Assembly (NCBI GenBank): GCA_963739305.1
Contig: CAVTZU010000015.1
Location: 60,365 to 124,364 of the forward strand
DNA: 64,000 nt
Source of the DNA: Candidatus Bathyarchaeota archaeon
Lineage (GTDB): Archaea; Thermoproteota; Bathyarchaeia; Bathyarchaeales; Bathycorpusculaceae
Direction of reading: 5' to 3'
A program made the translations under genes and the position numbers. Of the stretch, positions 43,621 through 63,482 are shown one piece after another. Every line of letters begins with the position of its first letter. The first letter of the stretch is position 1. The notes beneath the pieces were generated by a model, which ran no database searches, was not told the DNA's origin, and saw nothing but the letters and a program-made list of their open reading frames with translations.

Positions 43621-43651
43621 TTCCATAGTTCAAAATGGTTGGCATGACGCC

Positions 43652-43882
43652 TTATCTTCTCCCAGCGGCGTCTTGTTTGAGTCTCTGCAGAAGAGTTGAG
43701 GCTTCGAGGCTTGTCTTCGCAGAGCCCAATTTCTTAGCTCTCTCCAGGACTACTTTTGAACCGCAATAGGGACACGTTCGGGTTTTCTGGTCAGCCTTTG
43801 CCAGGAGGAAACCGCCGCACTTGCTGCACACGACGACGAATGTGACGGCCAATTTTTTCACCAGACAGAAAGCCTTTTCCAC
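43652..43882 (-). CDS. DUF1922-like zinc-ribbon protein
   Basis: CSKCG..KTRTCPYCG. Confidence 0.75.
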   Translation of the reverse strand: MEKAFCLVKKLAVTFVVVCSKCGGFLLAKADQKTRTCPYCGSKVVLERAKKLGSAKTSLEASTLLQRLKQDAAGRR

Positions 43883-43918
43883 TTTGCGCTAGATAACGTT
43901 AGTGCTGGAGAGGGAAGT

Positions 43919-44287
43919 CTGACGAGCAGTGAAGCAGAGCAGCCGAAAGCACAGTCCAAGCTTGTTGTGGACGTGACGCGGTACTTCAAGAAAGAAGGCT
44001 ACAAGGTGGAGCCCGACGCGACGACTTTTGAGGGCTTCAGTGGAATAACTCAGAAGTTCGATCTCATAGTTCAGAAAGGGCGTGTGGCGCAGGGAGTCTG
44101 GATTAGAGATTGGAGAAGAACGATAGGCGTCAATATCATCATAAACATAGATAAGGCTTCTTCAGACGTTGGACTGTCAAGCCCGATAATAGTCGGTGAC
44201 AAGTTCAGTGACCACGCAAAATCGTACGCGAACAGGAGAAAAATCACGCTGCTAACAAGGCAGCAAATAGCCTCACGAATGAGGTGA
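43919..44287 (+). CDS. Mrr-like restriction-endonuclease-fold protein
   Basis: EGFSG..KFDLIV, FSDHAKSYANRRKITL; start uncertain (CTG 43919 or GTG 43967). Confidence 0.6.
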   Translation: MTSSEAEQPKAQSKLVVDVTRYFKKEGYKVEPDATTFEGFSGITQKFDLIVQKGRVAQGVWIRDWRRTIGVNIIINIDKASSDVGLSSPIIVGDKFSDHAKSYANRRKITLLTRQQIASRMR

Positions 44288-44293
44288 CGTGAG

Positions 44294-44896
44294 CTACTCG
44301 ACTAGCAAGAAAGCGTATCTGTTCATCGTCTGCGAATAGTCTCGCAAGACCTCGATGGGATAACCGATTTGCTTGACCGTCGAGAAAACGTCAACGGCCA
44401 TGGCCTCAGGAGATGGACGCGCAGACCTCTTTCTTCTGCATCTTAACCTTTGTGCCGTGCAGTTCTTGCACAGGCTGCAGGAATCCATGAACAGAATGAA
44501 GGCCTTCGGATTGCCTGCCAAGAACACTTCGCGCTCCAAGTTGACGAGCTTCTCGTTTATGCCCTTCGCCCATTCGTGCCGTTTCTCGGGTTTCTTAATC
44601 TTCTTTTCAAAATGAAATACGGCGCCAACGGAGTAGTCACCGAAGAATATCTTGCATTCATCAACGGACGGCGTGTTTGGAGGGCAGCACGCGATTCTTC
44701 CGTACTCCATGCAACCGAACATGCATTTCATTCTGACCCATTGGGAAACAACGATGTTCTTCGGGTCAATCCATCTGAAATCTTTGAAGCCATGCTTGAA
44801 GAAGAGTTTCTCTAATTGTTTTCGTTCGCTCGTCAAGATCAACTCCGCAACATCGAAAGGACGATTACGCCTTCGGTGTTCAAAAGACTTTTTCAA
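44294..44896 (-). CDS. DUF2284 metal-binding protein
   Basis: WVRMKCMFGC, CCPP, CSLCKNC, RPSPEAMAVDV. Confidence 0.85.
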   Translation of the reverse strand: MKKSFEHRRRNRPFDVAELILTSERKQLEKLFFKHGFKDFRWIDPKNIVVSQWVRMKCMFGCMEYGRIACCPPNTPSVDECKIFFGDYSVGAVFHFEKKIKKPEKRHEWAKGINEKLVNLEREVFLAGNPKAFILFMDSCSLCKNCTAQRLRCRRKRSARPSPEAMAVDVFSTVKQIGYPIEVLRDYSQTMNRYAFLLVE

Positions 44897-44902
44897 GTTA
44901 TT

Positions 44903-45491
44903 TTAGATTCTTAGGTATTCTTCAAGCAGACCTTCTTTTTCGAGTTTTCCGAGCCAATCGACTATGCCCACGTGACAGCTGTCAAGGTTGTTCAGAAGGA
45001 GTAGAACTTCTTGAACGATGTGGTCAACAGTTTTGCCTGTAACGTCCACTTCGCACACTCTTCTCTGATCGATGAGGTTCAGTGCATCGACTAGGCAGAC
45101 ATCAAGGATTTCGGAAGCCAAATTCTCGAACAGTTTCTTACCAGAAAACCCCGATTGCTCCATAAATTCTCGCAGTTCAACAGGATCTCGCCTCAAGACA
45201 AACACGCAAGTGACAAGGTTAATGGGAACCACACTGACGGCGTAGTGACCGTCAACGACGATGTTGTCTTCTTTTGAATTAGCGATAATCTCGCCTAGCC
45301 TCTTGTGCATTTTGTTTTCGTCAACTATCACGGATGCGCGCTTCTTGTCTTTGCCTGAAACTAGGTTTTCGGTCAATGCCAATTCGGTGAGGTTCAAGTA
45401 CAGACGCGTTCAGGTTTGACGCCAGTGGGCGGGCTACTGAAGTTTTTCCGACGCATGGTGTTCCGGTTACTAGTATGACGCGTTTGGTCAT
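44903..45491 (-). CDS. AK6/Fap7-type adenylate kinase, frameshift near 45405
   Basis: MTKRVILVTGTPCVGKT read manually in an upstream frame; VVDGHY, VLRRDP, ENLASEILD. Confidence 0.88.
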
Positions 45492-45581
45492 TCCGACCCC
45501 TCGATATTCACGCTATTGAGTGTCCTGGGGAAGAATAAGGTTTCCAAAATTCTTATTGCGCACTGCTGCGCATTGTATGGT

Positions 45582-45901
45582 TGGCTGGCGAGTTGGTGTG
45601 TGGCTTTCGAGCCTTTGAATTGAAAGGCTTGAGGAAACTCCGCCCACGCGTAGAATTGCAGCGTTCGCAAGGGCGCAAGGTGAGAACCTTGGCTACGGAG
45701 CAGAAACGAAACGTCCATTCAGCAGGGGACGATGATGCATGTTAAGTTGCTGAGGATGCTGAGTGTGAAGCGGTGAAACGGCCGTCCTGCAAGTGGAAAG
45801 GGCAAACAGACGCTGATGACGTCTCTACCGGAAGCGCGGGTAGCCCGATTAGCCGAATGCCACAAAGAACAAAAGGCGGGTTACGACCAACACGCCAGCT
45901 A
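45582..45901 (+). ncRNA. rnpB: RNase P RNA
   Basis: P4 halves GAGGAAACTCCGCC and ACAAAAGGCGGGTTA; P1 TGGCTGGCG/CGCCAGCTA; GAAACGG motif; K-turn GATGA..CTGA. Confidence 0.92.
45882..45899 (+). repeat. attL, TACGACCAACACGCCAGC
   Basis: Identical to 56238-56255; lies in the rnpB 3' end. Confidence 0.85.
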
Positions 45902-45954
45902 AATTTCCCGTACGCCACAAGTCTGCAAAGGGAATAGACAACATTCTCATCGAA

Positions 45955-46802
45955 ATGAAGCTAGACAACAAATCCGACTACACAATAAACTTCACACGCA
46001 AAGCACTCAACACAATCAGCGACCATGCAGACCTGAACAAACCCGACGAAGTGCGAATGTTCATAGCCATGCACAAAACCACAGACGGATACAAACGAAA
46101 CCTCTGCATAGCCTACAACAAATACGCCAAGTTTTACAACATCGCATGGAACATGCCCAAGTACAGACCAGAAGCGAAGAACATCGCACTACCAACCAAA
46201 GAGAAAATACAGATGCTCATCGCAAGCGCAGGGAAGCTCCTCGGAATGAAACTACAACTGAGCATGGAAACAGGATTAAGACCCGTAGAACTCGCTCGAC
46301 TCAAAGTCAAAGACCTCGACCTAGACCACAAGACCGTTAATCCGACCACAGCAAAGAAAGGCAACGCAAGAACCCTGCCACTTAGCGAAACTCTCACAGC
46401 CAAGCTAAGAGAACACATAGCGAACCACAGCCTAGCACCCACAGACTTACTTTTCAAAGGAACAGATTCAGACCACTACGGAAAACAATACCGCGATATG
46501 CGAAACAAGCTATCCGAAAGAATAAAAGATCCATCAATCCGAACAATAAGACTCTACGACCTGAGACACTACTTCTGCACAAAGAAACTCAATGACATTC
46601 AGAACCCATACATCGTAATGGTGTTAATGGGACACACAAAACTCACAACAACCCAACGATACATGCACCTACTCAACCTCAACGACGACGAATGGACTGC
46701 ACAGGAGCAACAACAGCCAAAGAAGCCACCAAACTCATAGAAGCTGGATTCCAATACGTCACAACAATCGAAGGAATACAACTATTCAAAAAACGCAAAT
46801 AA
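45955..46802 (+). CDS. tyrosine recombinase/integrase, frameshift near 46697
   Basis: ETGLRPVEL, K, LYDLRHY, MGH, TQRY; shifted C-terminus CTGATTAKEATKLIEAGFQYVTTIEGIQLFKKRK. Confidence 0.93.
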
Positions 46803-46898
46803 CCCTCCTTTTTTCTTTATACCATCAAGAAACATCTTATCTTAGTAAGAGCATCATTGGAACTGATAAAACACTAAGTATCAATCCATAGAATAGTG

Positions 46899-47849
46899 TT
46901 ATGAGCGCGATTTCCCAAATGTTTTCTTGTGATATTTTTTCCTGAATAATATCCTTGAAGGAAGAGTGAACGCCTGTCCAATTTTTGAAAACAAATGTGG
47001 AAGCGGTAGCAAAAACGATGTTTTGGAACGATAATCCGAAAATGTTTCACCACAATGCGTATTCATTTTGATATTCCTCTTGCAATGCAATCGCAACGAC
47101 TACCAAAGCAGATATTAGCCATGGGAGAGCTGGAAAAATCAAAGGTGGTCCGCTTATGCTATTGAGGGCATGGAGCGAACCGCTCGAGAACGCTATGCTC
47201 CCGTACGTGAATAGAAGAAACCCAAAATACTGCGGATGTCTGGTATATCTGTATGCCCAAAAATCGATCAATTTGATTTCCCTAAATTTGCCATAGAGCC
47301 AAGTCACGGCACCAAATACGAAAAAGAACATACCAACCCACATCAAAGAAAAAGCCAATAATGGATGCCCCCACCCTACAGCGTTCATCAACGAGTCCGT
47401 CACCATGTAAGGAAGGAAAACTATACTGCCTAAATGCATCACGGTTGAGGAACCGAATGGAGACCACAGCATTAAAAGCGCGCCCAAACCAGCATAAGGG
47501 AACATTGAAGATACGAAATAAGCGAAAACGGGCAAGTGCAGTGTAAAAGAACCTAGCACTGACAAGTAGCCTTTTTCAAAAGCAGACCAACGACGATCAA
47601 GACCGCCGTGATCCCAAACACAACTAGGACGACGGGCTGCATGACTTGCATTATCTGTAATTCTAGTTGTGGATATTCCCAATACTTCAAATTGTTGGGA
47701 AACAGTGCCAATAGCCACTCGTTAAGAATACTGACAAAGGAGAGAGCTGCAACGAAAAAGACAAATGCGAGAACCACCGACGAGAGAACAGCAAGCGCAA
47801 ATCCTCTAGCCAAAGCTGACCCATTTCTATACGTGATCAGGCCAAGCAT
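46899..47849 (-). CDS. ICMT/phospholipid-methyltransferase-like membrane protein, two frameshifts
   Basis: AYRYTRHPQYFG, ALQEE, F.DYRSKTSFLLP spread over three frames. Confidence 0.7.
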
Positions 47850-47948
47850 TAAGAGTTTGGGTGTAGTGCGAGCTAAAGGTCACCAGAAGATTGTTCTATC
47901 TGCACATATTAGCCAAATTAGCTCACCCGCACCATGAAATCATCTTTA

Positions 47949-48000
47949 GCTCGTGAGCCTTTCGGCTCACTCGCACGTTCCAGCTTAATCGATACGCCAA
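47949..48000. repeat. hairpin repeat copy 1
   Basis: GCTCGTGAGCCTTTCGGCTCACTCGCACGTTCCA..GATACGCCAA. Confidence 0.9.
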
Positions 48001-48011
48001 TCGTACGCTCA

Positions 48012-48500
48012 CTAAGAGTTGCTGACGTTTGAATTCGGTCTTATGGTCACGACTGGATAGTTCTTGGCAGCCGCCGTCACCAACTCATTGAACTTATCTT
48101 CCGTTGTCTCAGCTGTAATTCCCAAGCGGTCCGCATGAGAAATTCGCACATACTCTGCAAGCCTAGGCACCGCATCTGTTTCATTGTGTTCGATTGTCCT
48201 TGCGAGGCATTCCATTGATTTCCCCTTGTAAAACAGATCTACCTTTGATTCTTTGCGAAAGTTGCGCCACCAAGTTGGTAGTTCTCCAAAACAGCCAGGC
48301 ACGACGATGAACTCGTCTTTGTACTGCGCGACATGGAAAATCAACGAGTGTTTCTTATGCGTCTTTCTTCCAGTGTAAGTCAGTATCACCCAGTTGTCAG
48401 GTAGCAGTGAGCGAAAAGGTGAACGAAGGATAGTTTCAAGGATAGGATTGAACAAGTTGTTGGCGAACCAGTACATCATCATTTTCTCGCCCCAATACAA
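48012..48500 (-). CDS. split-barrel deazaflavin(F420)-dependent nitroreductase-like protein
   Basis: LTYTGRKT, PTWWRNFR, YPVV. Confidence 0.75.
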   Translation of the reverse strand: MYWGEKMMMYWFANNLFNPILETILRSPFRSLLPDNWVILTYTGRKTHKKHSLIFHVAQYKDEFIVVPGCFGELPTWWRNFRKESKVDLFYKGKSMECLARTIEHNETDAVPRLAEYVRISHADRLGITAETTEDKFNELVTAAAKNYPVVTIRPNSNVSNS

Positions 48501-48535
48501 TCAAAAATTAACTCTTTAAAATAGCTGTTTGTCTA

Positions 48536-48560
48536 TTAGCTCACCCTTCGGCTCACTCGC
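48536..48560. repeat. partial hairpin repeat copy 2
   Basis: ATTAGCTCACCC (also present near 47918) joined to TTCGGCTCACTCGC. Confidence 0.65.
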
Positions 48561-48611
48561 CCGTAAGAGATATCTCTTCGCTAAACCATATTGGGTTAGG
48601 GGAAAGAAAGC

Positions 48612-49781
48612 TTGAATAGGGCATTTTCTGGATTATTGCTTGCACTGCTTTTTTTATGGGTGCTGCTGCTTGCATTCGAGGTTCAGCCAGTCAAAGCCGC
48701 CACATTCACTGTTCCAGATTATTACCCGACAATTCAAGCAGCCGTAAACGCCGCAAATAGCGGAGACGTCATATTCGTCAGGAATGGGACATACAACGAG
48801 CATCTTATCATCAACAAGACTCTCATGCTTGCTGGGGAGAACAGGGCAGGCGTGGCCATCGATGGAAACGAGACAGGACGAGTCATCAGCGTTTTCGCGG
48901 ACAACTGCACAATCACAGGGTTCACGGTGCGAGGAGGAGGTTTTACGCCTTGGGGTTCAGACAGCGGCATCTACATGGCCAGCTCAAACAACCTCGTAAC
49001 CAAGGACAATCTGATCAATAACAAAGACTGGGCCGTCTGGCTTGAAAACAGTTCCAGCAACAACACCGTGTCCAACAATCTCATAGCGAACAACTGGCGT
49101 GGAATCTACTTGAACCACAGCGCAGCAAACACCATAGCTGGCAACAACATTACAGACGCCAATCAGGGAATCTGCTTTGAAAGCTCCAGCTTCAACGTCG
49201 TCTGGAACAACTATATGTCAGAAGGCGCGACCGGCATAGCGGTTTATGATTCTTCCCTCAACAACTCTGTAACGTGCAACACATTCTCAGATAACTCGAT
49301 GGGAGTTGACGTTGGCGGGCAATCAGCTGTAGACTGTCCATCGAACAACACGTTTTATCACAACAACTTCATCGGTAACTATGAAGACATCCGTTTCTTA
49401 ACGTTCTTTGGCACGAATTCATGGGAAAACGGCTACCCTTCTGGCGGGAACTACTGGACTGACTACAACGGCACAGACTTGAAAAGTGGTCCTTATCAAA
49501 ACGAGACTGGAAGCGATGGGATCGGAGACAAGCCGTACATTATCGCTGGCAATGCTACCGACAATTATCCTCTCATGCATTCATTTGTCCCTCTTTCTGG
49601 AGATCTGAACCAAGATGACAAGGTCGATATGTATGACGCTATCCTAGCTTCCAAGGCCTTTGGATCAACGCCTTCCGATAAGAATTGGAACTCGGCGGCG
49701 GACCTGAACGGAGACGGCCATGTAGATATCTTCGACGTTATCATTCTGGCTCAGAACTTCGGCAAGATTTATCACCCTTAA
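48612..49781 (+). CDS. secreted NosD/CASH beta-helix protein with C-terminal dockerin-like domain
   Basis: VPDYYPTIQAA, Asn-rich repeats, GGNYWTDY, GDLNQDDKVD/ADLNGDGHVDIFD. Confidence 0.88.
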   Translation: MNRAFSGLLLALLFLWVLLLAFEVQPVKAATFTVPDYYPTIQAAVNAANSGDVIFVRNGTYNEHLIINKTLMLAGENRAGVAIDGNETGRVISVFADNCTITGFTVRGGGFTPWGSDSGIYMASSNNLVTKDNLINNKDWAVWLENSSSNNTVSNNLIANNWRGIYLNHSAANTIAGNNITDANQGICFESSSFNVVWNNYMSEGATGIAVYDSSLNNSVTCNTFSDNSMGVDVGGQSAVDCPSNNTFYHNNFIGNYEDIRFLTFFGTNSWENGYPSGGNYWTDYNGTDLKSGPYQNETGSDGIGDKPYIIAGNATDNYPLMHSFVPLSGDLNQDDKVDMYDAILASKAFGSTPSDKNWNSAADLNGDGHVDIFDVIILAQNFGKIYHP

Positions 49782-49813
49782 CTTGTGCAACACAGGCGCA
49801 CTAGAACATCTTG

Positions 49814-49847
49814 GCTCGTGAGCCGTTCGGCTCACTCGCACGTTCCA
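49814..49847. repeat. hairpin repeat copy 3
   Basis: GCTCGTGAGCCGTTCGGCTCACTCGCACGTTCCA. Confidence 0.9.
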
Positions 49848-49906
49848 GACGATTGCGCGCGCGGTCGCATTAAGCTTTTAGCAAACCAGTGTGATGTTCT
49901 TTCAAG

Positions 49907-51016
49907 GTGACTAATGTGACGGACCAGAGAATTGAAAGACTCGCGAAACTATGTATTCACTACAGTGTTGATGTCAAGCCAAAAGAGCAAGTCGTGATAC
50001 GGGGAAGCACATCAGCCGTGCCGTTGATCCGCGAATTATATAAAGAATGCCTGCTGCGTCGTGCCCATCCGCTTTTCTTGCCTGTTTCCGATTTCGACTA
50101 TGCTTTCTACAAGTACGCAAAAGAACCCCAACTGGAATTTGTCTCGCCTTTCTCGAAGTTCCTCGTGGAAAATGAGGATGTGACGATAAGAGTAGTGTGC
50201 GACCCAAACCCTAAGCAATTGACAACAATAGACCCTGCAAAAATAAGGAAGCACAGCGCCTCCCAGAAAGAGATCAGCGAGATCTTCCACAAACGCTATG
50301 CCGAAGGAAAACTCAGATGGACAGTTCTGCCCTACCCGATCAATGGTCAAGCACAAGAAGCTGCAATGTCACTCGAAGAATACGAAGACTTCGTCTACGA
50401 TAGCTGCCTGCTTGACAAGAAAGACCCTGAGTTCGAATGGAAGAAAATCCAGAAACAACAAGAAAAGACCTGCAACCTCTTGAACAAGACCAGCCAAATT
50501 CGGATGGTGGGTAAAGACACGGAATTGACCTTCAACGTGAAAGGCAGAAAATGGATAAACTGCAGCGGAAAAGAAAATATGCCAGACGGAGAAGTGTACA
50601 CTGGACCCGTCGAAAACTCGTTGAACGGTACGATAAGATTCACCTACCCAGGAATATACTCTGGCAAAGAAGTAGAGGACATCACACTCACATTCAATAA
50701 AGGCAAAGTCATCAAAGCCTCAGCCGCCAAAGGAGACGAACTACTAAGAGAGATACTGAAGATTGAAGGCGCAAACCGCATCGGCGAAGCTGCCATCGGA
50801 ACAAACTACGGCATAACACAGTTCACTAAGGAGATGCTTTTCGACGAGAAAATGGGCGGAACAATCCACATGGCCCTCGGAAACTCCTACCCAAAAACAG
50901 GAGGACTAAACAAATCGGCCATCCACTGGGACCTCCTCAAAGACATGAAGAAAGGCAGCGAAATCTACGCAGACAAAGAACTGTTCTACAAGAATGGAAA
51001 GTTTCTGAAAACTTGA
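49907..51016 (+). CDS. M29 (AmpS/aminopeptidase II) metalloaminopeptidase
   Basis: NMPDGEVYTGP, GEAAIGTN, LFDEKMGGTIHMALG, SAIHWD. Confidence 0.93.
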   Translation: MTNVTDQRIERLAKLCIHYSVDVKPKEQVVIRGSTSAVPLIRELYKECLLRRAHPLFLPVSDFDYAFYKYAKEPQLEFVSPFSKFLVENEDVTIRVVCDPNPKQLTTIDPAKIRKHSASQKEISEIFHKRYAEGKLRWTVLPYPINGQAQEAAMSLEEYEDFVYDSCLLDKKDPEFEWKKIQKQQEKTCNLLNKTSQIRMVGKDTELTFNVKGRKWINCSGKENMPDGEVYTGPVENSLNGTIRFTYPGIYSGKEVEDITLTFNKGKVIKASAAKGDELLREILKIEGANRIGEAAIGTNYGITQFTKEMLFDEKMGGTIHMALGNSYPKTGGLNKSAIHWDLLKDMKKGSEIYADKELFYKNGKFLKT

Positions 51017-51118
51017 TCCGCGAACGCTCGCGCGCGCAAAACCTGTAAGCCGAGCCTCTTCTAGACTTCGGAAATTATTAAAGCATTATTACGCATATCA
51101 TACCTTCTGGGAACATAA

Positions 51119-51208
51119 ATGCCGAAAAAAGAAAAACCGTTAACTAAGAAAGAGCGAGACGAGAAAAGGAAGAAACATAAGGAAAAGCAAAGCAAAACAC
51201 AGACTTAA
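51119..51208 (+). CDS. tiny Lys/Arg-rich peptide (29 aa)
   Basis: MPKKEKPLTKKERDEKRKKHKEKQSKTQT; T-rich tract downstream. Confidence 0.45.
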   Translation: MPKKEKPLTKKERDEKRKKHKEKQSKTQT

Positions 51209-51379
51209 GCCCCAAGAAAGAGCTTTGCAAAACTCTTTTTCTCTTTTTACCATAAAGTTGGCTTCTTTAATGAAATGAAAGAAAGACGCGTCAGCTTTGG
51301 ATATTATTGGCTTCCTCCATTAATGCGAAAGAAATATGTTTTAGCTTGTTTATTTATCGTTAATTTGTAGCTGAGATTT

Positions 51380-51508
51380 ATGCCGAGTGTAATGAAACGT
51401 AAACAAAAGAATACTCAAATCGCACAACAGAAAAAGATAGAACGGGATAAAGAAGCGAAAAAGAAACAGTTGAGACAGCAACTTCCTGCCAAGGGCAAGA
51501 AACGTTAA
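51380..51508 (+). CDS. tiny Lys/Gln-rich peptide (42 aa)
   Basis: MPSVMKRKQKNTQIAQQKKIERDKEAKKKQLRQQLPAKGKKR. Confidence 0.5.
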   Translation: MPSVMKRKQKNTQIAQQKKIERDKEAKKKQLRQQLPAKGKKR

Positions 51509-51599
51509 AGCCACTAAAGGAGCTATGGTAACCTCTAGAAGCGCGCGCCTTGCGGAACCGCGAGCGCGATGGGAAGCTGTGGTACAATAGGCATCATTT

Positions 51600-51665
51600 C
51601 TACTTCATTGCTTCTTTCTTCTTTTTTTCTTCTTTCATCCTTTCTCTCTTTCTTTTAGTTGTCAT
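51600..51665 (-). CDS. tiny Lys/Arg-rich peptide (21 aa)
   Basis: MTTKRKRERMKEEKKKKEAMK. Confidence 0.35.
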   Translation of the reverse strand: MTTKRKRERMKEEKKKKEAMK

Positions 51666-51837
51666 CGCATCACGTTCTATTTACCATATATCTCTAACAA
51701 TTTCGTAGACTTGTTGTAAAGAATATCTATTTCTATGTTTCCTTGCTAATTTTCCTATTTCACGCGCCCTTACGCGCGCATCGTTTTGGATAAGCAGTGC
51801 GAATACACTATAAGCCGCGAAGCACCTATTATCGGAA

Positions 51838-52035
51838 ATGCAACCTAATCAGCAGAGGAGCCAAATCAATCCTGGTACCCGCGTAAAAATCATCTTGAAG
51901 CAAGACCAACGCAACGGCAAATTAACTGAGGGCATCGTCAAGAATATCCTCACCAACAGCTCAACTCACCCCCACGGAATCAAGGTACGACTAATAGACG
52001 GCAAAGTCGGCAGAGTACAATCAATAATAAAATAG
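51838..52035 (+). CDS. YwbE/DUF2196 family protein
   Basis: LKQDQRNGKLTEG.VK.ILT.S..HPHGIKVRL.DG.VGRV. Confidence 0.9.
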   Translation: MQPNQQRSQINPGTRVKIILKQDQRNGKLTEGIVKNILTNSSTHPHGIKVRLIDGKVGRVQSIIK

Positions 52036-52048
52036 TAGCGCGCGAGGA

Positions 52049-52249
52049 TTAGGGCCGTCTTTGTATGAGTATCCTGTCTATTTTTCCTTCTGCTAGTTGT
52101 TCCTGCAACTCTTTGACGAAGCTGTAGAATTCGTCTGGAAACATGGCGACTTCTGTGTTCATGTCGAACGTTTTTGTCTGGGCCACGGTGTTGGCGTAAA
52201 GGCCGTTCTTGATTCCTTCCACACTAACCCGTACCATACCATCATCCAT
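52049..52249 (-). CDS. hypothetical protein
   Basis: Short ORF between two (GC)n runs. Confidence 0.5.
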   Translation of the reverse strand: MDDGMVRVSVEGIKNGLYANTVAQTKTFDMNTEVAMFPDEFYSFVKELQEQLAEGKIDRILIQRRP

Positions 52250-52295
52250 AGAAAGAAGAAAGGAAGATAGATTATATACATATCTAACGCGCGCG

Positions 52296-52329
52296 CGCAA
52301 ATAACCCTCTTTTTTCTTTATCCATTAAG
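52296..52329 (+). repeat. copy of the integrase stop/terminator region (46794-46829)
   Basis: CGCAAATAACCCTC(C)TTTTTTCTTTAT(A)CCAT(C/T)AAG at both sites. Confidence 0.75.
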
Positions 52330-52340
52330 CGAGCGCAAAG

Positions 52341-53618
52341 TCAATGATCGACACGGAATCCTGCTAATTCTCCGTCTCCAACGACATTCAAATTGTGTAT
52401 GAAGTCGCCCTGACCATTGCTGGTCATGGGAAATGAACCGTGATCAAGCCAACCACTTCCGTAGTATCCGCATGAAAGTGTGTTGTTGTGGATTATGCTT
52501 CCTCCGTATATCAACTGCGTGTAGATATTGATGAAGTTGCAGTTATCAAGTAGGATCATTCTTCCGTCATTTGCGTACTCAAAGTCTGCGGCATGAATCG
52601 TGATCCATGCCGAGTTATTCATGTGCAATGAGAACGACGTTGACAGGTCTGAACTGCGGTCCATTATGTCTAACCGTCTGAACTCAATCAGGTTAAGCTG
52701 GAATTGCCAATCCGTGCCGACCAGTTCAACAATGTTCTTGGATATCTGCAAGCTTGGCGCAGTCCTAGCCAAAACCTCTTCAAATACGGCATCACCGTAT
52801 TTTATAGTGTTGCTTAGGCTTGCAAAATAGAGTGCTGGGCCTCCGAAACTAAACAGCATCTTGCCAGTTATATGCAGAAAATTGACCAAATAGAAACCGT
52901 AGTGGTCTGCATCGTGGCCGAGAACGACAATATTCTCTAATGTAGAGTACAGCAAACCTGAGTTCCCGAAACCAGGATCGCTGCAAATTCCGTTTCCAGT
53001 TCCATTCCCTGAAAACTTTACTACCAAATTCTTGATTGAGACAGTGAGAGTGCCTACTAACGTTATGCCATTTGTATCAGGGGATGTGACCTCAATGACT
53101 GTTCCTCCTGCGGAGGAAAGAATCCCATCGGGATCGAGAGGAAGACTCTGTGGCTCAGTGAAAATCCCTTCGCCGACAATGCTTATACTCTTGTTGACTG
53201 TGAACGGGCCGTACACCCCATTCTTCAAGAAGACAAGACCTCCACTTGGAGTGGAGTCTATTGCTCGCTCGATTATTTGACTGGAATTGTCCCCCGAAAA
53301 GTCTGCTTTTCCTGTGGAGCCGTTGTAGGCTTTCACGGTATTGTTTTCCCAAGAGATTAGGTAACTTGCCTCAAAGCGTGAATCGGCAGTTGTTCCAGGC
53401 GTCCCCTGAGGACCCTGAACGCCCTGCAAACCTTGATCACCCTTGTCTCCTTTAGGACCTACTGCCAACCTCAAAGAAACCAATGAAGAAACAAGACTGG
53501 AAAGTACAACGATTACCGCGAGGCTCACGATGAAAGTGGTTCTTGAAATTCTTAACTCAGAGATCTTCTCATCCTCAAAACCCAAATTCACTCTTGTCTG
53601 TTTAAATGATTTGTCCAT
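52341..53618 (-). CDS. membrane-anchored protein with short collagen-like repeat and pectate-lyase-like beta-helix
   Basis: TM helix, GPKGDKGDQGLQGVQGPQGTPG, IERAID..GGLVFLKNG.Y. Confidence 0.72.
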   Translation of the reverse strand: MDKSFKQTRVNLGFEDEKISELRISRTTFIVSLAVIVVLSSLVSSLVSLRLAVGPKGDKGDQGLQGVQGPQGTPGTTADSRFEASYLISWENNTVKAYNGSTGKADFSGDNSSQIIERAIDSTPSGGLVFLKNGVYGPFTVNKSISIVGEGIFTEPQSLPLDPDGILSSAGGTVIEVTSPDTNGITLVGTLTVSIKNLVVKFSGNGTGNGICSDPGFGNSGLLYSTLENIVVLGHDADHYGFYLVNFLHITGKMLFSFGGPALYFASLSNTIKYGDAVFEEVLARTAPSLQISKNIVELVGTDWQFQLNLIEFRRLDIMDRSSDLSTSFSLHMNNSAWITIHAADFEYANDGRMILLDNCNFINIYTQLIYGGSIIHNNTLSCGYYGSGWLDHGSFPMTSNGQGDFIHNLNVVGDGELAGFRVDH

Positions 53619-53662
53619 AAAACCTTGGCGTGCGCTTTTTATTCCGAAACGAAGAGAAAAAG

Positions 53663-53709
53663 GCTCGTGAGCCGTTCGGCTCACTCGCACGTTCCAAGCG
53701 ATACGCCAA
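53663..53709. repeat. hairpin repeat copy 4
   Basis: GCTCGTGAGCCGTTCGGCTCACTCGCACGTTCCA..GATACGCCAA. Confidence 0.9.
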
Positions 53710-53791
53710 AAAACCGACACACTCAAAACTAACGACGCGCGCACTCGCTAGATTTAAAATGTCGTGTCCCTTTTTCATGTAATGTGTCCTT

Positions 53792-54502
53792 ATGCCGCGA
53801 CCGCCAGAATTCAGACCTGAAGACAAAATGAAGATGCTTCTATGGAGCGATCGTCACTGTTGCCTGTGCAAGAAGCCGTGTGGGATCGACATCGAAATAG
53901 CGCATATTGACCGCAATGCAGGCAACGACATGGATAATGGAATGCCCGCTTGTTATGATTGCCATGCTAGGATTGACCGATACAATCCTGAAACCAAAAG
54001 AGGAAACAAGTATAGGATTGAGGAATTGAAAAAACGCAGGAATCAGGTTTACGAAGAATTCACTAGGAACCTCGTTCCACCCATTCTGTTTCGTCCTACG
54101 ACGGAGAGAACAATGGCAAGCCCTCGAGCTGGAGACACTTTGCCCTTCATCGCGACAATTATCGAGCACAATGGTGACTCTCTGCCCGTGAAACTAAAGG
54201 TCGAGGTCAAGGTGATTCTTGCCGATGACATCAAAGATGTGCCAGATGAAAGCGGATACTATACTGGTAAGGTAATATGGAACATGAATCCTCGCAGATA
54301 TTTCTTCGGAGGGTTCAGCATTGCCAAAGACGACGCCGAACGGGCACGAAAAGAAGAACTTAAGATCGAAGCAAGAATTACCGTCATTGACCAGTTCGAA
54401 AGGGAACATAAGCTTTTACCCGAATGCTGGAGCTACAAGAAAGTGAGAGAAGGTCTTTACGTGTGGAATCTGGAGCCTAGATCCTTTGCAGATTGGACTT
54501 GA
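53792..54502 (+). CDS. HNH-type zinc endonuclease-domain protein
   Basis: CCLC..EIAHID...NDMDNGMPACYDCH. Confidence 0.78.
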   Translation: MPRPPEFRPEDKMKMLLWSDRHCCLCKKPCGIDIEIAHIDRNAGNDMDNGMPACYDCHARIDRYNPETKRGNKYRIEELKKRRNQVYEEFTRNLVPPILFRPTTERTMASPRAGDTLPFIATIIEHNGDSLPVKLKVEVKVILADDIKDVPDESGYYTGKVIWNMNPRRYFFGGFSIAKDDAERARKEELKIEARITVIDQFEREHKLLPECWSYKKVREGLYVWNLEPRSFADWT

Positions 54503-54602
54503 TCGGATCGTGCTACATCAGGCTAGTCGCATGACGCTCGCGCTCCCACACGCGCGCTACAAAAGTTAGGCGCACACCCCTATACAAAAGAAGCGTTAAA
54601 AT

Positions 54603-54980
54603 ATGGCTTCAGGCAACCCATCAACGCATGGTGATTTCTTGAAAGTGGTGAATGAAAAAGATCTAAGGAAGGAAGTTATGTTTCGCGATGTTCGTGTGCA
54701 TTTGGCGAATCTTGTGGAACAACCTGATTTCGTCGTAAGGACAGCAGTTATTCCGCCAAACAGCTCAGTACCTCCGAAGCCGCACGCACATAAGATGCGC
54801 CAGATAAACTATGTTATTGATGGCAAACTGGCGATAACCAACGGCAAAGAGACCGTTGATTTGAGGAAGGGAGATTTCATCATTCTCGAAAGCTTTGAAG
54901 AACATTATTACAGAACAACGAATGATTATGCACACGTCTTCGAAGTGCAGTTTTCGACGCATCTGCGTGTAGAAAAGTAG
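54603..54980 (+). CDS. cupin domain protein
   Basis: PHAH..QINYVIDG..GD....EEH. Confidence 0.85.
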   Translation: MASGNPSTHGDFLKVVNEKDLRKEVMFRDVRVHLANLVEQPDFVVRTAVIPPNSSVPPKPHAHKMRQINYVIDGKLAITNGKETVDLRKGDFIILESFEEHYYRTTNDYAHVFEVQFSTHLRVEK

Positions 54981-55044
54981 CGCGCGCTAATCCTTAAGGC
55001 TTATATGAATGATACTAAAGAGTGTTGCAAGGGGGAAGACAATC

Positions 55045-55620
55045 ATGAGTTTCTTCAAGAAGATTACGGACAGGGTTACGAAACCTAAATCTAATGTGTC
55101 CTTGAGACTTGACAAGAATACCTTCAACTTTGGAGATAAGGTGGAAGGCACATTGACTGTGAGTTCAGAGGAAGAGGTCGATGTCACAGAAATTAGAGCT
55201 GAACTTCGATGCGATGAGAAAAAGAAGGAATATGTACAAATGTCAGACGGGCACGGGGGTGACCAGTGGAAAAATAAAACAATTTATCGTGAAAACCCGC
55301 AGGCCTCGGGACCAATTCACCTTTCCGCAGGATATAGAGGCGAGTTTCCATTCAGCACAAATGTCGCAGGAGGACAACCCAGCTATTCTGGTGACGCTAG
55401 AACCGTCACATGGACTCTCAAGGGTGTTATTGGGATTAAGGGGCGACCTGACGTTACAAGCCCGACAGCGGGCATTCAAGTGGCAGGAGCGCCTACAACC
55501 GTTACCACGGAGAAAATAGTGGAACGCGAAGTCGTTATGATACCCTGTGAATACTGTGGGGGGCTGTTTCCGCAAACGGTGACGACTTGTCCAAGATGCG
55601 GTGCGCAGAGAAGAACCTAA
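55045..55620 (+). CDS. SpoOM/arrestin-N-like protein with C-terminal zinc ribbon
   Basis: LRLDK..F..GDKVEG, EFPFS, PSY, WTLKG, CEYC..CPRC. Confidence 0.65.
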   Translation: MSFFKKITDRVTKPKSNVSLRLDKNTFNFGDKVEGTLTVSSEEEVDVTEIRAELRCDEKKKEYVQMSDGHGGDQWKNKTIYRENPQASGPIHLSAGYRGEFPFSTNVAGGQPSYSGDARTVTWTLKGVIGIKGRPDVTSPTAGIQVAGAPTTVTTEKIVEREVVMIPCEYCGGLFPQTVTTCPRCGAQRRT

Positions 55621-55732
55621 AGGAACTTTTCATACCAGCGCGCGCTATAACTTTTCCGCAAAATCCAAAACGGGCTTAGAAATGATAGTAGAGGACTGTT
55701 GTAGTTATCTTCGAACAGTCTTCCTTCAGATG

Positions 55733-56143
55733 CTATTTGTTTAACGACTTCCGCATTTTTTCCATTGTCTCGTTTTCTTTTGTTCGTTTCTGCTCCCCTG
55801 ATTTCCTTCTCTCTTCAATTTCCTTATTGTGACTTTCAACACGTCTATTTGTCGCCTCTACTAGAGCTTTCACCCAATCAATCTCGCTCTTCATTTCCTC
55901 TGGTATCGTCACGACTCTGAGTTTCTTGCCTACGATTTGTACTTCCCTTTTCAAGGGATAGAGGCTCGTTTTGTGTTCGTTCTGAAAAATCTCTTCCCAC
56001 CCAAAGTCTGGGGTTGAATCCAATTCAAGTTCAAACGCATATGCTTCAGCAAAAGCATCAATTTTCTTGATTTTAATCTTGCTGGCATCAATTGGTTTGA
56101 GATTCACTTTTTTCAAAGGTCTTTCCATCTCTTGAACCCTCAA
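55733..56143 (-). CDS. hypothetical protein with C-terminal coiled coil
   Basis: 136-aa ORF flanked by ~26-bp direct repeats at 55644 and 56165. Confidence 0.7.
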   Translation of the reverse strand: MRVQEMERPLKKVNLKPIDASKIKIKKIDAFAEAYAFELELDSTPDFGWEEIFQNEHKTSLYPLKREVQIVGKKLRVVTIPEEMKSEIDWVKALVEATNRRVESHNKEIEERRKSGEQKRTKENETMEKMRKSLNK

Positions 56144-56237
56144 CTTTTAGATAAGTTCGGTTCAGCTATAACCTTTCCGCAAAACCAAAAAAGAGGGGTG
56201 TTTGCGGATAATGGCGACGTCGCCAGCCTTGCTAGGC

Positions 56238-56255
56238 TACGACCAACACGCCAGC
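56238..56255 (+). repeat. attR (displaced rnpB 3' end)
   Basis: Identical to 45882-45899. Confidence 0.85.
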
Positions 56256-56607
56256 CATTACTGCTGTGATTCTTACGCGCGCGAGCGTGAAGGTGGGATG
56301 GTGGTGGATACCCCTCCTAGGTTTCAATGTACCATGAATATTTGGATCCAAATAGGTCACTTTAGGGTTCATGTAATCAGGGTTATAGGTGGGTTTCCAA
56401 GCAATGATTGCCACGGTCCTTCCCACATGACCTAATGAAGCATTATCCTCAGCATCTTACGGAGTCATGGACGGTTAAGGACTTCAAGTTCTTTGTCAAG
56501 CCGAAGACCATGCATAGACTTTTGAAGAACACGGTGAGAAGCCTCTGCTTACGTACGTGTTTTTGTTTCCTCTCACCATAAATACTTGGAGTGCTAGATT
56601 TTCGTTT

Positions 56608-57474
56608 ATGGGATACCAATCGCGTGGGGGAGGTTCGCCTCGCGGCTCGGGACGAGGACGCGGAATTCAACACGGTAAAAAAGCCAAAGCCAAAGCTAAG
56701 GAGCAGAAACGCCAAAACATGGGAAATTTTGCCTCGCAAGAGGACGTTCTGCCAGCTCCAGAAGAGATTGTGAACAGAACATGCGCAACTCTGCATAATC
56801 TTGGAAGCCAGAGGTTTGCCCTCGCCCCGTTTGGTGAGCACCTCAACCGTTGGCTCGTGAACTTGAAAGATGTCTTGTCCGAGTTCGAATCAAGCCCTGT
56901 AATCACGATGGATGACCAGTTCGTGGAGGAGCGTTTACGGGTAGTCTCAGATGTTGAACTTGATTTTGCCAGAAGGCGAGACAGAGAAGCTTCGCTTAGT
57001 GGTATTGTCAAGAGCCTTTCTGAAAACAGAGCAGTCCTCGAAGAAATCGAGGAGAACTGCGCCGTGACAAAGCAAGAGATCGAGGGACGAAAAGAAGCTG
57101 AAATCAAGCGTCACTCCGCCAATGTCGCCGATATCAAGGAAGAACTGAACAAGATAGTCCAAATGAAGGCAGGCATCTTTAGACGGGTCTCGAAAGAGGT
57201 TAAGGCGCAGAAGGAGGCAGAAGCGACGCAAAGACTGAATGCTGCGCAAAGAGACCTGGCTTCCGCGGAGCAGCATCTAGCTGCTGAACAAGAAGAGTCA
57301 GAGAAGAAATACGAAGAGAAGAAACAGCCTATCACAGAGCAGATTCAAGGGCTGGAGAAGGAGATTGAAAGTCAGGAAATAGATGAATCCGTGGAAGTCA
57401 GACGAGTTGCCTGCGAATCTCTTGTCAACGCAGTGAACTCCTTGATTCAACGGAAAAGCAGTTCAAGTGCGTAG
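56608..57474 (+). CDS. coiled-coil protein with RG-rich basic N-terminus
   Basis: SRGGGSPRGSGRGRG followed by long E/K heptads. Confidence 0.75.
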   Translation: MGYQSRGGGSPRGSGRGRGIQHGKKAKAKAKEQKRQNMGNFASQEDVLPAPEEIVNRTCATLHNLGSQRFALAPFGEHLNRWLVNLKDVLSEFESSPVITMDDQFVEERLRVVSDVELDFARRRDREASLSGIVKSLSENRAVLEEIEENCAVTKQEIEGRKEAEIKRHSANVADIKEELNKIVQMKAGIFRRVSKEVKAQKEAEATQRLNAAQRDLASAEQHLAAEQEESEKKYEEKKQPITEQIQGLEKEIESQEIDESVEVRRVACESLVNAVNSLIQRKSSSSA

Positions 57475-57513
57475 CACAGTCAGCTACAAAGAAGTCAGAA
57501 GCTTCTTCAAGGG

Positions 57514-59262
57514 TTAGATCAGTTTTGTCAAAACAACCTCTGGCTGAAACTCTTCCTGAGATCTGACTGAGGCTTCTTCTACGTAAAGTTGCACCGCGTA
57601 CTTTAGTGCTTCCTCGCTTACTGGAATGTAATCGAAATCAGACTGGAAATAGCTTAGCATCGAAGCGGCACACGCAAAACGCATTGCACGATCCTCGAGC
57701 CTCGCGGAGAAACGAACAGACTCCTTTTCTATTTCGTCCAGGATCGCCCTCCTCGCTCTCGTGAACATCTCCTGTGCCTTTGAGGTGAGCATCACCGGTT
57801 TTTGCTTGAACCTTCCCGCCACCAAAGGATGATTCGTTTGAATAGCGTAGACTAGCGAAAGATGATCCCTCACTCTTTGCGCTCCTTTCTCGATGTCGAC
57901 CTCTCCGAAGGCTAAGCGCATCTGACTTTCTGCTATTTCTACGAAGCGTTGCTTCGTCAGTTTGTGGAGTCGACACAGCATCCTGTCCTCGATCGCACTG
58001 AAGTTCGGGTCTTGAACGGTAACTTCGTAGCCCCTTCCCGACGCGGCGACGTTATAGTTCACGCTGAAGAAGCCAGTGAAACGGTAGGGCCCGATCGTTT
58101 CTCTTTCCGTTTCATACTTGATTTCGCCCCGTTCCATCGCAAGCTTCAACGGTTCGACCATTCCCTTGTACTTGAACCAGTCATTGAATTCAGGAACGAC
58201 GAAGTTGAAAACTCGCCCCGTATAGGCCTGACCGATCCGGATGAATTTTGCCGGAGTAATGCCGCCAGCATAACGGTTGCGACCCGGTATCCCGTGCGGC
58301 GGCACCTTTGCGTCAAATTTTCCCAAGATGAGATCACGTGCCGAGAAGCTCTTGCCCGTTCCAGGTTCACCAAACAGCGAGAGGTTCCATCCTGTTCGCA
58401 TTCCAGTTTTACCGGTCGCATGGATTATTTCAACGTCTGCCAATCCATATTGTTGCGTAAGGCTTAGCAAGCAGTCGAAAAACAGGAGTGGGCCGAAAAG
58501 TTGTTTGAGATAGTCTGCGATGTGATGTATGGAAAAGGACTTGCCGAACTCAACCGTCTGCTCAAGTCGATACTTTAGCAGGTCGCTCAGGTATTGGTCA
58601 AGCTCTTGATCCATTCTTTCGATGAATAGGCGTTCTTCGCTCACCGAGTCAGACTTAATGCTTCCTGAAGGTGCAGAAGGAGAAGTCATAATTGGTTTCC
58701 TTATCTCCTTTCGGCCTATCTCCAGCTCCTGCCGTATTACGGGCAGGGTCTCTTCCAATATTGACCATTCAATCGACTGCTTGCTCTCGTACGACCGCAC
58801 GATCACGCCCGACTTTTCTAAGTCTGACAAAATCTGAGAGGGATCCACGCCTTCAGGAAGGTTCCGTTTGACCTCATTCAAGTTGCAGCCCCTACTGGAC
58901 TCCAAAAGACACTTCAATACTTCTGAACAATTTTTGCCATATTTCATCTTCGCCTTCGCGAGCGCTGACTGAATTGCTTTCCATGAATCTTCTAGCCGAA
59001 ACTCCCCCTTCTCAAACGTGTAGTATTTGCCCCTGAAAACCTCCCACTCGCGTGGTTTGCTGCTTCTAAAGATCACCTTGAGCTGTTCGTCGCTGACGTT
59101 CGATGCGATTTCAAGAGCTGCCTTCTGCTCGTCAATGTCCCATTCGTTATTGTAATTTTGAAAATACAGAATGCCTGACGACTTTCCGACTTTGTAAAGC
59201 ATTGATCTTGGCAAAAGACGCCTGAGAAGAATCTCCCTTTCGAATATCCTGTCATTCAACAT
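57514..59262 (-). CDS. divergent MCM-like AAA+ ATPase
   Basis: Walker A GEPGTGKS, Walker-B-like VVPEFND, LKLAMERGEI, SAIEDR, SARL; no canonical MCM N-terminal Zn/OB region seen. Confidence 0.7.
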   Translation of the reverse strand: MLNDRIFEREILLRRLLPRSMLYKVGKSSGILYFQNYNNEWDIDEQKAALEIASNVSDEQLKVIFRSSKPREWEVFRGKYYTFEKGEFRLEDSWKAIQSALAKAKMKYGKNCSEVLKCLLESSRGCNLNEVKRNLPEGVDPSQILSDLEKSGVIVRSYESKQSIEWSILEETLPVIRQELEIGRKEIRKPIMTSPSAPSGSIKSDSVSEERLFIERMDQELDQYLSDLLKYRLEQTVEFGKSFSIHHIADYLKQLFGPLLFFDCLLSLTQQYGLADVEIIHATGKTGMRTGWNLSLFGEPGTGKSFSARDLILGKFDAKVPPHGIPGRNRYAGGITPAKFIRIGQAYTGRVFNFVVPEFNDWFKYKGMVEPLKLAMERGEIKYETERETIGPYRFTGFFSVNYNVAASGRGYEVTVQDPNFSAIEDRMLCRLHKLTKQRFVEIAESQMRLAFGEVDIEKGAQRVRDHLSLVYAIQTNHPLVAGRFKQKPVMLTSKAQEMFTRARRAILDEIEKESVRFSARLEDRAMRFACAASMLSYFQSDFDYIPVSEEALKYAVQLYVEEASVRSQEEFQPEVVLTKLI

Positions 59263-63206: not shown

Positions 63207-63294
63207 TGGTGCGGGGGATGGGACTTGAACCCATGAACGCCTGCGCGACAAGGTCCTAAGCCTTGCTCCTTTGACCAAGCTCGGAAACCCCCGC
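63207..63294 (-). tRNA. tRNA-Leu(UAG)
   Basis: Cloverleaf with long variable arm, anticodon loop CTTAGGA, encoded CCA. Confidence 0.95.
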
Positions 63295-63405: not shown

Positions 63406-63482
63406 GCCTCGGTAGCCTAGCCCGGTGGGGCTCCGCCTTGGTAAGGCGGGGGTCGCGGGTTCGAATCCCGCCCGAGGCTCCA
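63406..63482 (+). tRNA. tRNA-Thr(GGU)
   Basis: Acceptor GCCTCGG/CCGAGGC, anticodon loop TTGGTAA, GTTCGAATC, CCA. Confidence 0.95.

Follow-up and report, generated by a model that had tools for sequence, protein, structure and literature searches.

The window analysed here is a stretch of 64,000 nucleotides of contig CAVTZU010000015.1 from a Candidatus Bathyarchaeota archaeon genome (GenBank assembly GCA_963739305.1). It carries rnpB, the gene for the RNA of RNase P, followed on the same strand by an open reading frame (ORF) for a tyrosine integrase, and it carries the 3' end of rnpB a second time about 10.4 kb further on. We call the two copies attL and attR, for putative left and right attachment (att) sites, and the DNA between them (45900-56237) the island. 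The argument turns on five features:

45583 to 45901, plus strand: rnpB, the RNase P RNA gene, intact, the putative attachment target (RF00373, 197.8 bits).
45878 to 45899, plus strand: attL core, the exact 18-mer at 45882-45899 within a 22-nt genus-wide core, GGGTTACGACCAACACGCCAGC (repeat search, alignment).
45955 to 46740, plus strand: tyrosine integrase ORF, 261 aa, cut off early by a 1-nt deletion near 46697 (PF00589, alignment with six relatives).
46698 to 46803, plus strand: out-of-frame rest of the integrase gene, encoding its conserved C-terminal tail (...ATKLIEAGFQYVTTIEGIQLFKKRK, then a stop; frame translations, alignment to metagenome contig L220).
56238 to 56255, plus strand: attR core, a putative displaced rnpB 3' fragment, followed by a native-type C (repeat search, alignment).

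The match to the Rfam family RNaseP_arch (RF00373) at 45588-45895 spans the entire model (1-288/288) and scores 197.8 bits against a gathering score of 84; the gene is 91-93% identical to rnpB of the same-genus genomes. Since the match runs from end to end, the first copy of the repeat corresponds to the 3' strand of the terminal helices of the RNA. As the initial annotation of the window had claimed, the 18-mer TACGACCAACACGCCAGC at 45882-45899 recurs exactly at 56238-56255, both copies being on the plus strand; the direct repeat lengthens to 21 nt if one mismatch is allowed. No third site was found in the window at up to two mismatches, nor any further core-like site, inside the island or outside, at up to six, and 100 dinucleotide-preserving shuffles gave no match. 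Elsewhere in the assembly (2.3 Mb, 36 contigs) there is only one match, on another contig and with two mismatches. The 18-mer is thus no common dispersed repeat, a possibility that had been raised against the island.

The two copies differ in what follows them, TA at the proximal copy and CA at the distal one. With the 5' end of rnpB, TTGGCTGGCG, CA forms Watson-Crick pairs; with TA, one G-U pair is formed besides A-T pairs, so that the earlier claim of a perfect P1 helix for the distal continuation and a G-U pair for the proximal one stands. The base 3' of ...CCAGC (or its variant) is C in 9/9 aligned rnpB loci of other genera, as at the distal copy, which fits a native flank retained there. 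We also placed Logan contigs of four public sequencing runs on 43000-59000, bearing in mind that such contigs drop rare forms. Variant metagenome contigs leave the window sequence directly after 45899, with joints from 45899 and from 45903, and the attR junction is spanned by contigs of runs X1 and X3. The left flank of the window is present in peat and wetland metagenomes.

The ORF at 45955-46740, which starts 55 bp after the first repeat copy as previously noted, is a tyrosine integrase by its match to PF00589 (residues 100-239, E 4.7e-21, 75.8 bits against a cut-off of 27.1); it also matches the phrog_1 integrase family (9.1e-29). R109, R204 and H227 are invariant in an alignment of seven integrases, Y236 lies within QRYMH, and all four residues are upstream of the frameshift. 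In this clade of integrases a Tyr replaces the usual His three residues before R204. After DDEWT the window sequence reads AQEQQQPKKPPNS and stops, whereas 6/6 relatives go on with a conserved tail ending in ...FKKRK or ...FRKRK; the missing tail can be read in another frame from 46698 to the stop at 46801-46803. Contig L220, which matches the window at 89.7% identity over the rnpB end plus integrase, has one extra T where the window shifts frame, and in runs X1 and X3 about 40% of the contig depth carries an extra base behind 46697. With this 1-nt deletion near 46697 the integrase gene has no full-length reading frame and is probably disabled, unless an assembly error at 46697 accounts for the deletion, which may be the case. 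Because the deletion removes the conserved C-terminal tail of the integrase, this copy of the island is probably immobile at present, and probably represents a decayed member of its family.

The tail itself, about 45 residues after the catalytic Tyr (...EA..LIE.GF.Y......G..LF.KRK), occurs in all full-length integrases of the two clades described below and in other integrases of this genome (contigs C13, C25 and C24), and lies outside the Pfam domain (alignment A1, C-terminal 45 columns). A separate oddity is the rnpB-adjacent integrase of same-genus genome G008 (locus L034, 7741-8631), which has His in place of the catalytic Tyr (MVHTHIV, where its relatives have MIYTHIV); an identical protein segment is present on metagenome contig L233.

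We then compared the rnpB loci of related genomes. The gene was found in 34 of the 41 genomes searched, six of them being the genomes of the window's genus with an assembled rnpB. In 6/6 of these a PF00589 gene lies directly beside the rnpB 3' end, and the integrases belong to two lineages. Further fragments of the rnpB end, one or two per genome, lie downstream in three of them (two each in G001 and G005, at a spacing of 6-10 kb, and one in G002). In G001, a complete genome, rnpB is followed by an integrase 78% identical to that of the window and, 6 kb on, by a second, 23-nt copy of the rnpB end; then come a second integrase (71%) and, 9 kb further, a third copy. Three cores are present in G005, along with two second-lineage integrases and a truncated integrase of the window's type. 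In G002, which has two cores, the integrase is interrupted by one stop, and in G009 it is a wreck with six stops; G008 has a single integrase beside rnpB. Behind every further core copy in G001 and G005 comes an integrase, the remnant of one, or an arm of the element type. The sequence before distal cores is common across species (copy 2 of G001 with copy 2 of G005; copy 3 of G001 with copy 2 of G002), and the sequence after proximal cores is of two types, which match the two integrase lineages. On this alignment of loci we read the shared sequences before cores, and the lineage-specific ones after them, as signatures of element ends.

The cargo behaves differently from the flank on the left, where the genes are syntenic across the family. 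When 20 ORFs of the window were compared by tblastn with seven regions of five same-genus genomes, only the integrase, two left-flank genes, part of the NosD gene and short N-terminal segments gave matches. Syntenic cargo in relatives, which the initial annotation had named as a finding that would speak against an island, was thus not seen. Outside the genus, G030, of another family, has an integrase adjoining rnpB that is 50% identical to the window's, and in G023, G018, G013 and G040, of other genera, rnpB has no neighbouring integrase and runs straight into genes whose homologs lie elsewhere in the genome of the window. Contigs of three other genera (G011:C30, G016:C2/C17, G022:C11/C35) break at or within the rnpB 3' end, and G019 and G022 have separate rnpB 3' fragments of 113-124 nt on other contigs; this is as expected if repeated att copies break assemblies.

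These comparisons bear on the simplest explanation, namely that the repeat is an artefact of chance or duplication and the integrase a resident host recombinase that merely neighbours rnpB. The best named match of the window integrase is indeed the archaeal XerA model (NF040815), and no excision product is among the joints listed for the public runs. The score for that model is only 77.1 bits against a cut-off of 220, however, and the shuffles gave no chance match to the repeat. Such a reading, which we consider highly improbable, is already contradicted by the core arrays (two or three copies each), by integrases of two lineages and in two orientations, by pseudogenes and variable cargo, and by rnpB loci without an integrase in other genera.

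An alignment of seven rnpB-adjacent integrases was used as the query for a wider survey, of the kind the initial annotation had suggested, which yielded 77 related integrase loci from contigs of one genome per species, nearly all labelled Bathyarchaeia or Bathyarchaeota. Using a nhmmer profile built from 21 rnpB sequences, we found rnpB, whole or in part, within 3 kb in 47/77 loci, and the 22-nt core alone next to the integrase in nine more (seven with at most three mismatches and two with four). In total, the rnpB 3' end or the core lies beside the integrase in 56/77 loci, in one of two layouts: either the integrase is just downstream and co-directional, or it is convergent, with its 3' end facing the rnpB 3' end. 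Side findings of this search were a contig with rnpB plus integrase filed under the name of a bacterial metagenome-assembled genome (MAG), Acidoferrum, probably through a binning error, and three distant integrase matches in bacterial MAGs, two of them next to tRNA genes (all within the set L121, L124, L125 and L127).

An integrase tree was built from 60 rows, 18 of the 77 loci, in which the open frame around the match was shorter than 200 aa, being left out. In one clade of 20 rows (SH-aLRT 99), which divides into co-directional and convergent subclades, rnpB or the core is beside the integrase in 20/20. The clade of the window integrase has 35 rows: 24 are beside rnpB or the core, one is beside a tRNA gene and ten have neither; among these ten, core-like strings of divergent sequence are seen in some, and two lie after a protein-coding gene, at its 3' end. 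Two of the outgroup rows are next to tRNA genes.

Other targets are seen in the vicinity of these clades. Integrases of the window's clade (44-49% identity) immediately follow a protein-coding gene at its 3' end (...KYNGRPMSTTEVY / ...KYTGRPITTTEVY) on contig C25 of the genome studied here (G000, about 17.9-19 kb) and at loci L074 and L079; the C25 integrase is 44% identical to that of the window. These look like a switch of target. At L089 and L091 a tRNA-like 3' end (GGTTCGAATCC...CACCA) is upstream of the integrase; ARAGORN called no tRNA there, and it may belong to an intron-containing tRNA gene. L091 is sister to the rest of the window's clade, and the L089 frame was too short for the tree. 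Target switching thus appears to occur, yet rnpB is the main target of these integrases.

In metagenome contigs of the Joint Genome Institute (JGI), a 29-mer of the rnpB end was found in 27 stretches on 26 contigs. An integrase is within about 120 bp in 20 of the 27 and after a second core in one; four have element-type arms or extra cores, with no integrase in the available sequence, and two have neither. Contigs L212 and L222 have no integrase and no second core, and their flanks match nothing informative. Taken with the 56/77 loci and the clade of 20 rows, these contigs make it well supported, as a trait of the family judged from sequence comparison, that two related integrase clades use the rnpB target across Bathyarchaeia.

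We conclude that 45900-56237 is very probably an integrative genomic island, or the remnant of one, inserted by an integrase at the 3' end of rnpB. We infer the recombination event and the position of the crossover from the repeats, the intact target gene, the integrase, its frameshift and the recurrence of the arrangement in relatives. In the mechanism that we propose, attP would be a copy of the rnpB 3' end borne by the element and attB the 3' end of the chromosomal rnpB, and the tyrosine integrase would recombine the two by a crossover within the shared 18-22 nt. As a result of a crossover inside the shared core, the 3' end of rnpB at attL would now be supplied by the element, and the gene's original 3' fragment would lie 10.4 kb away at attR, still next to its native flank. 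The mechanism would be that of tRNA and tmRNA islands, acting on another structured RNA gene.

Several observations weigh against this interpretation. Besides the frameshift in the integrase, family searches found no replication, conjugation or virion families among the island proteins, and the G+C content of the island (0.405-0.477) is only slightly under that of its flanks (0.469-0.505). Among the 15 joints listed for the contigs of the four runs, neither a joint from 45899 to 56256, as left by an empty site, nor a circle junction was present, in contigs that lose rare forms and with a further 30 joints and 586 loose ends outside the listing, so that this absence speaks neither for nor against an island; an exact 30-mer across attR and its flank had no match in the JGI metagenome contigs. 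The right flank (from 56256 onward) is not syntenic in five same-genus genomes by DNA and protein comparison, which thus offer no empty site with the same flanks: in the complete genome G001 a homolog of its 305-aa ORF is about 450 kb away from rnpB, and its 582-aa ORF was matched in 0/5 genomes. Finally, internal repeats, and modules shared with relatives at 95-98% identity, suggest later rearrangement, and therefore the present 10.4 kb need not equal the DNA first integrated.

Hence the empty site that the initial annotation had proposed to look for, rnpB joined to 56256 onward, was found neither in relatives nor among the listed run joints nor in the JGI contigs. In G023, G018, G013 and G040 rnpB has no integrase beside it; the same-genus genomes are 6/6 occupied. 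As to its claim of an island of about 10.4 kb with a novel target, the targeting of the rnpB end recurs in relatives, and neither the same-flank empty site nor the circle junction came to light. The island interpretation is supported by comparison, not by an empty site.

The interior of the island contains about 13 ORFs, on both strands, together with a hairpin repeat that we call H and a conserved module of 487 bp:

47047 to 47849, minus strand: two overlapping membrane-protein ORFs (47047-47718, 47553-47849); the PEMT/DUF1295 and CmpB-like matches are weak and do not reach cut-off.
47948 to 47988, plus strand: H copy 1 (repeat search, fold).
48012 to 48500, minus strand: F420H2-dependent quinone reductase family protein (PF04075, 27 bits against a cut-off of 22).
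48612 to 49781, plus strand: NosD/right-handed beta-helix protein with a dockerin domain (PF05048 9e-22, PF13229, PF00404).
49813 to 49853, plus strand: H copy 2 (repeat search, fold).
49907 to 51016, plus strand: M29 aminopeptidase (PF02073, 1.1e-89).
51037 to 51523, plus strand: conserved module of 487 bp in which two very small Lys-rich ORFs lie at about 51119-51208 (about 29 aa) and about 51380-51508 (about 42 aa; sequence comparison).
51838 to 52035, plus strand: YwbE-family small protein (TIGR03833, 110 bits against a cut-off of 63.4).
52341 to 53744, minus strand: 467-aa ORF, function unassigned (no Pfam family; short collagen-like or tail-fibre-like repeat matches only).
53662 to 53702, plus strand: H copy 3 (repeat search, fold).
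53792 to 55620, plus strand: 236-aa ORF (weak HNH-like match), cupin protein (54603-54980) and 203-aa ORF (family searches).
55733 to 56143, minus strand: 136-aa ORF with no assigned function, preceded by a dispersed promoter-like repeat at 56156-56191.

The true start of the 467-aa ORF is probably further in, since the listed start overlaps H copy 3. Apart from rnpB, no Rfam family was found in the island at E <= 1.

The H repeat is about 41-60 nt long and has a stem of 7 bp and a loop of 4 nt (GTGAGCC-NTTC-GGCTCAC), with about 25 further conserved nucleotides; a degenerate copy is at 48544-48564. Its copies sit between genes irrespective of gene strand, and H was found only near integrases. 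The 487-bp module has one full copy in its own genome and no Rfam match. It is 95-98% identical in five same-genus genomes and nine further loci, while flanking housekeeping genes are only about 70-75% identical, and it is always downstream of an rnpB-linked integrase, of either clade. Its distance from the integrase varies: in contig L220 it begins about 350 bp past the integrase, and in the window 4.2 kb of cargo lies between the two. The elements thus appear, from this comparison, to share a small backbone, with unrelated cargo between its pieces. Exchange of cargo may proceed through a dedicated site-specific reaction or through ordinary recombination between repeats.

Such a patchwork could also stem from an accretion hotspot, in which several insertions at the rnpB end were followed by exchange of modules and by loss of internal att copies, the 10.4-kb mosaic never having moved as a unit. 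Relatives have tandem arrays and decayed integrases (six stops in G009, one in G002, a truncated third copy in G005), as the window has a frameshifted one, and contigs L214 and L215 have cores without integrases. The conserved integrase, H and the 487-bp module are parted by unrelated cargo in each genome, and L220 combines the same attL and integrase with a module much closer by. A 20-nt motif behind the integrase stop is found again at 52296 and, in inverted form, at 56187. Against this, no core-like site other than attL and attR turned up in the window even at six mismatches, and many joints at repeats have short sides and may stem from other organisms or from assembly. Accretion of this kind is a possibility that we hold tentatively; it would still require integrase-mediated insertion at rnpB, and so refines the explanation given above without replacing it.

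The hairpins lend themselves to a further explanation, in which the rnpB-adjacent integrase and co-oriented H repeats would together act as a platform resembling an integron, capturing single cargo modules at H sites and shuffling them there. H is co-oriented with rnpB in 17/17 copies in the rnpB regions of the six genus genomes, and in the 12/77 integrase loci that contain it 13/13 copies are downstream of the integrase and co-oriented. Of the five exact copies of the 22-nt H core in the genome, three are in the island and the remaining two have other integrases within 2 kb, and in G005 an H copy directly follows the 487-bp module, at a place where the window has none. The integrase, however, reaches only 54 bits on TIGR02249, the integron-integrase model, whose cut-off is 265 (and 37 against 435 on NF011946); H is a short stem-loop that shows no covariation, as its sequence hardly varies; and only three or four copies serve about 13 ORFs on both strands. 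The insertion is accounted for by normal attL and attR repeats, and the contigs behind the cassette-like joints may be chimeric at repeats. In run X7 one contig links 49853 to 51037, without the M29 aminopeptidase; since the joints between contigs at repeats have short sides, and contigs may cross repeats or be chimeric, we do not rely on them for cassette exchange. We regard an integron-like platform as improbable.

A broader form of the idea is that rnpB-linked loci are modular gene-capture platforms, with a backbone of integrase, co-oriented H and 487-bp module, in which a recombinase swaps cargo at H or at GC-repeat sites. The backbone is 95-98% identical between species and also between integrase clades, which share only about 27% identity with each other. 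This proposal is speculative and in our view unlikely; were it true, it would constitute an archaeal analogue of the integron or of dif-module cassette exchange, anchored at an essential RNA gene.

Some other repeats and genes deserve mention in their own right. Runs of alternating G and C (at least 7 nt) occur at many island gene boundaries between 49854 and 56290, for example at 49855, 51029, 51541, 52289, 54552 and 56276. As a signature of the island they were rejected: 11 are present in the 10.4 kb against 2.2 per 10 kb genome-wide, but the genome has 501 such places, which makes them unspecific. A likeness of H to the att core, 8/13 positions by eye, was judged too weak. A dispersed repeat of 44-46 nt at 56309-56354 has seven copies in the genome, with one copy 100% identical in G005, and many different neighbours in metagenome contigs. 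A promoter-like repeat at 55644-55670 and 56165-56191 (reverse complement ...GAAAGGTTATAGC) has at least ten similar copies in the genome; it precedes the minus-strand ORF starting at 56143, at a distance of 22-48 bp, and may be a promoter. Genes for tRNA-Leu (minus strand, 63207-63294) and tRNA-Thr (plus strand, 63406-63482) lie 7 kb to the right of the island, with no integrase adjoining them in the window.

Among known systems, the arrangement comes closest to the tRNA- and tmRNA-gene islands of the Islander type, which, as described in the accessible text of PMC4383910 and PMC8371274, likewise have an adjacent tyrosine integrase and the 3' part of a structured RNA gene as target; they also share restoration of the gene by the element, a displaced 3' fragment at the far end and tandem arrays at one site. 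Here, in contrast, the target is rnpB, and the core is the 3' strand of the terminal helices, with no symmetry of the T-arm or anticodon-arm kind. The locus also resembles archaeal integrases whose gene stays intact on integration, a class that we take to be the one labelled 'pNOB8-type', in that the att core lies upstream of the start codon and the gene is unsplit; it differs in that the rnpB clades are specific to Bathyarchaeia and carry the conserved tail of about 45 residues after the catalytic Tyr. The att core ends 55 bp before the integrase ATG, and except for the frameshift the gene is uninterrupted, so that the arrangement is not that of SSV-type integrases, which carry the att site within the gene and are termed 'suicidal' in the parts of the review of archaeal recombinases consulted (PMC8371274). 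With integrons (IntI, attI and attC arrays) the locus shares a recombinase at one end of a variable region and co-oriented hairpin repeats between genes; it differs in the low score on the IntI model, in H as a short hairpin without attC architecture (no attC model was run), in genes on both strands, and in attL and attR bounds formed by the end of a host gene. Close relatives of the integrase were found in none of the virus and plasmid collections searched, the best match being 31% identical in IMG/VR, 34% in phage records and 29% in plasmid records.

Proviruses that target non-coding RNAs are known as a class: in the 2026 ProBord survey, non-coding RNAs account for 13.5% of the RNA targets of border-mapped proviruses, and 'RNase P' and 'rnpB' occur 0 times in those portions of its main text that were accessible (PMC13626063). 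Unlike those proviruses, the island described here has no virus genes. For archaeal tyrosine recombinases, tRNA genes are the usual targets and 3' ends are preferred, with intergenic and protein-coding sites also in use, according to the accessible sections of the review cited above, where 'RNase' does not occur (PMC8371274). Two papers on Bathyarchaeia in which integrases come up say nothing of RNase P. No open-access paper was found, as far as texts were accessible, that names rnpB as an attachment site, and an earlier mention may exist, for instance in subscription journals or supplements; other papers with rnpB use the gene, in their accessible text, only as a marker or in annotation. On the open-access literature and one review, rnpB would thus be a new target of a known mechanism. 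Island finders such as Islander, from what is accessible of its description, look at tRNA and tmRNA genes (PMC4383910).

If this interpretation holds, a single-copy, essential ribozyme gene would be the main landing site of two integrase clades in many uncultured Bathyarchaeia, a lineage widespread in sediment and peat, and the general preference of integrases for 3' ends of conserved, structured RNA genes would extend further than before. Targeting of rnpB would explain why contigs break at this gene in Bathyarchaeia assemblies, and the region downstream of it may serve as a simple marker for the mobilome of these genomes. The integrases and their target may also provide a natural attB/integrase pair for a lineage that is without genetic tools.

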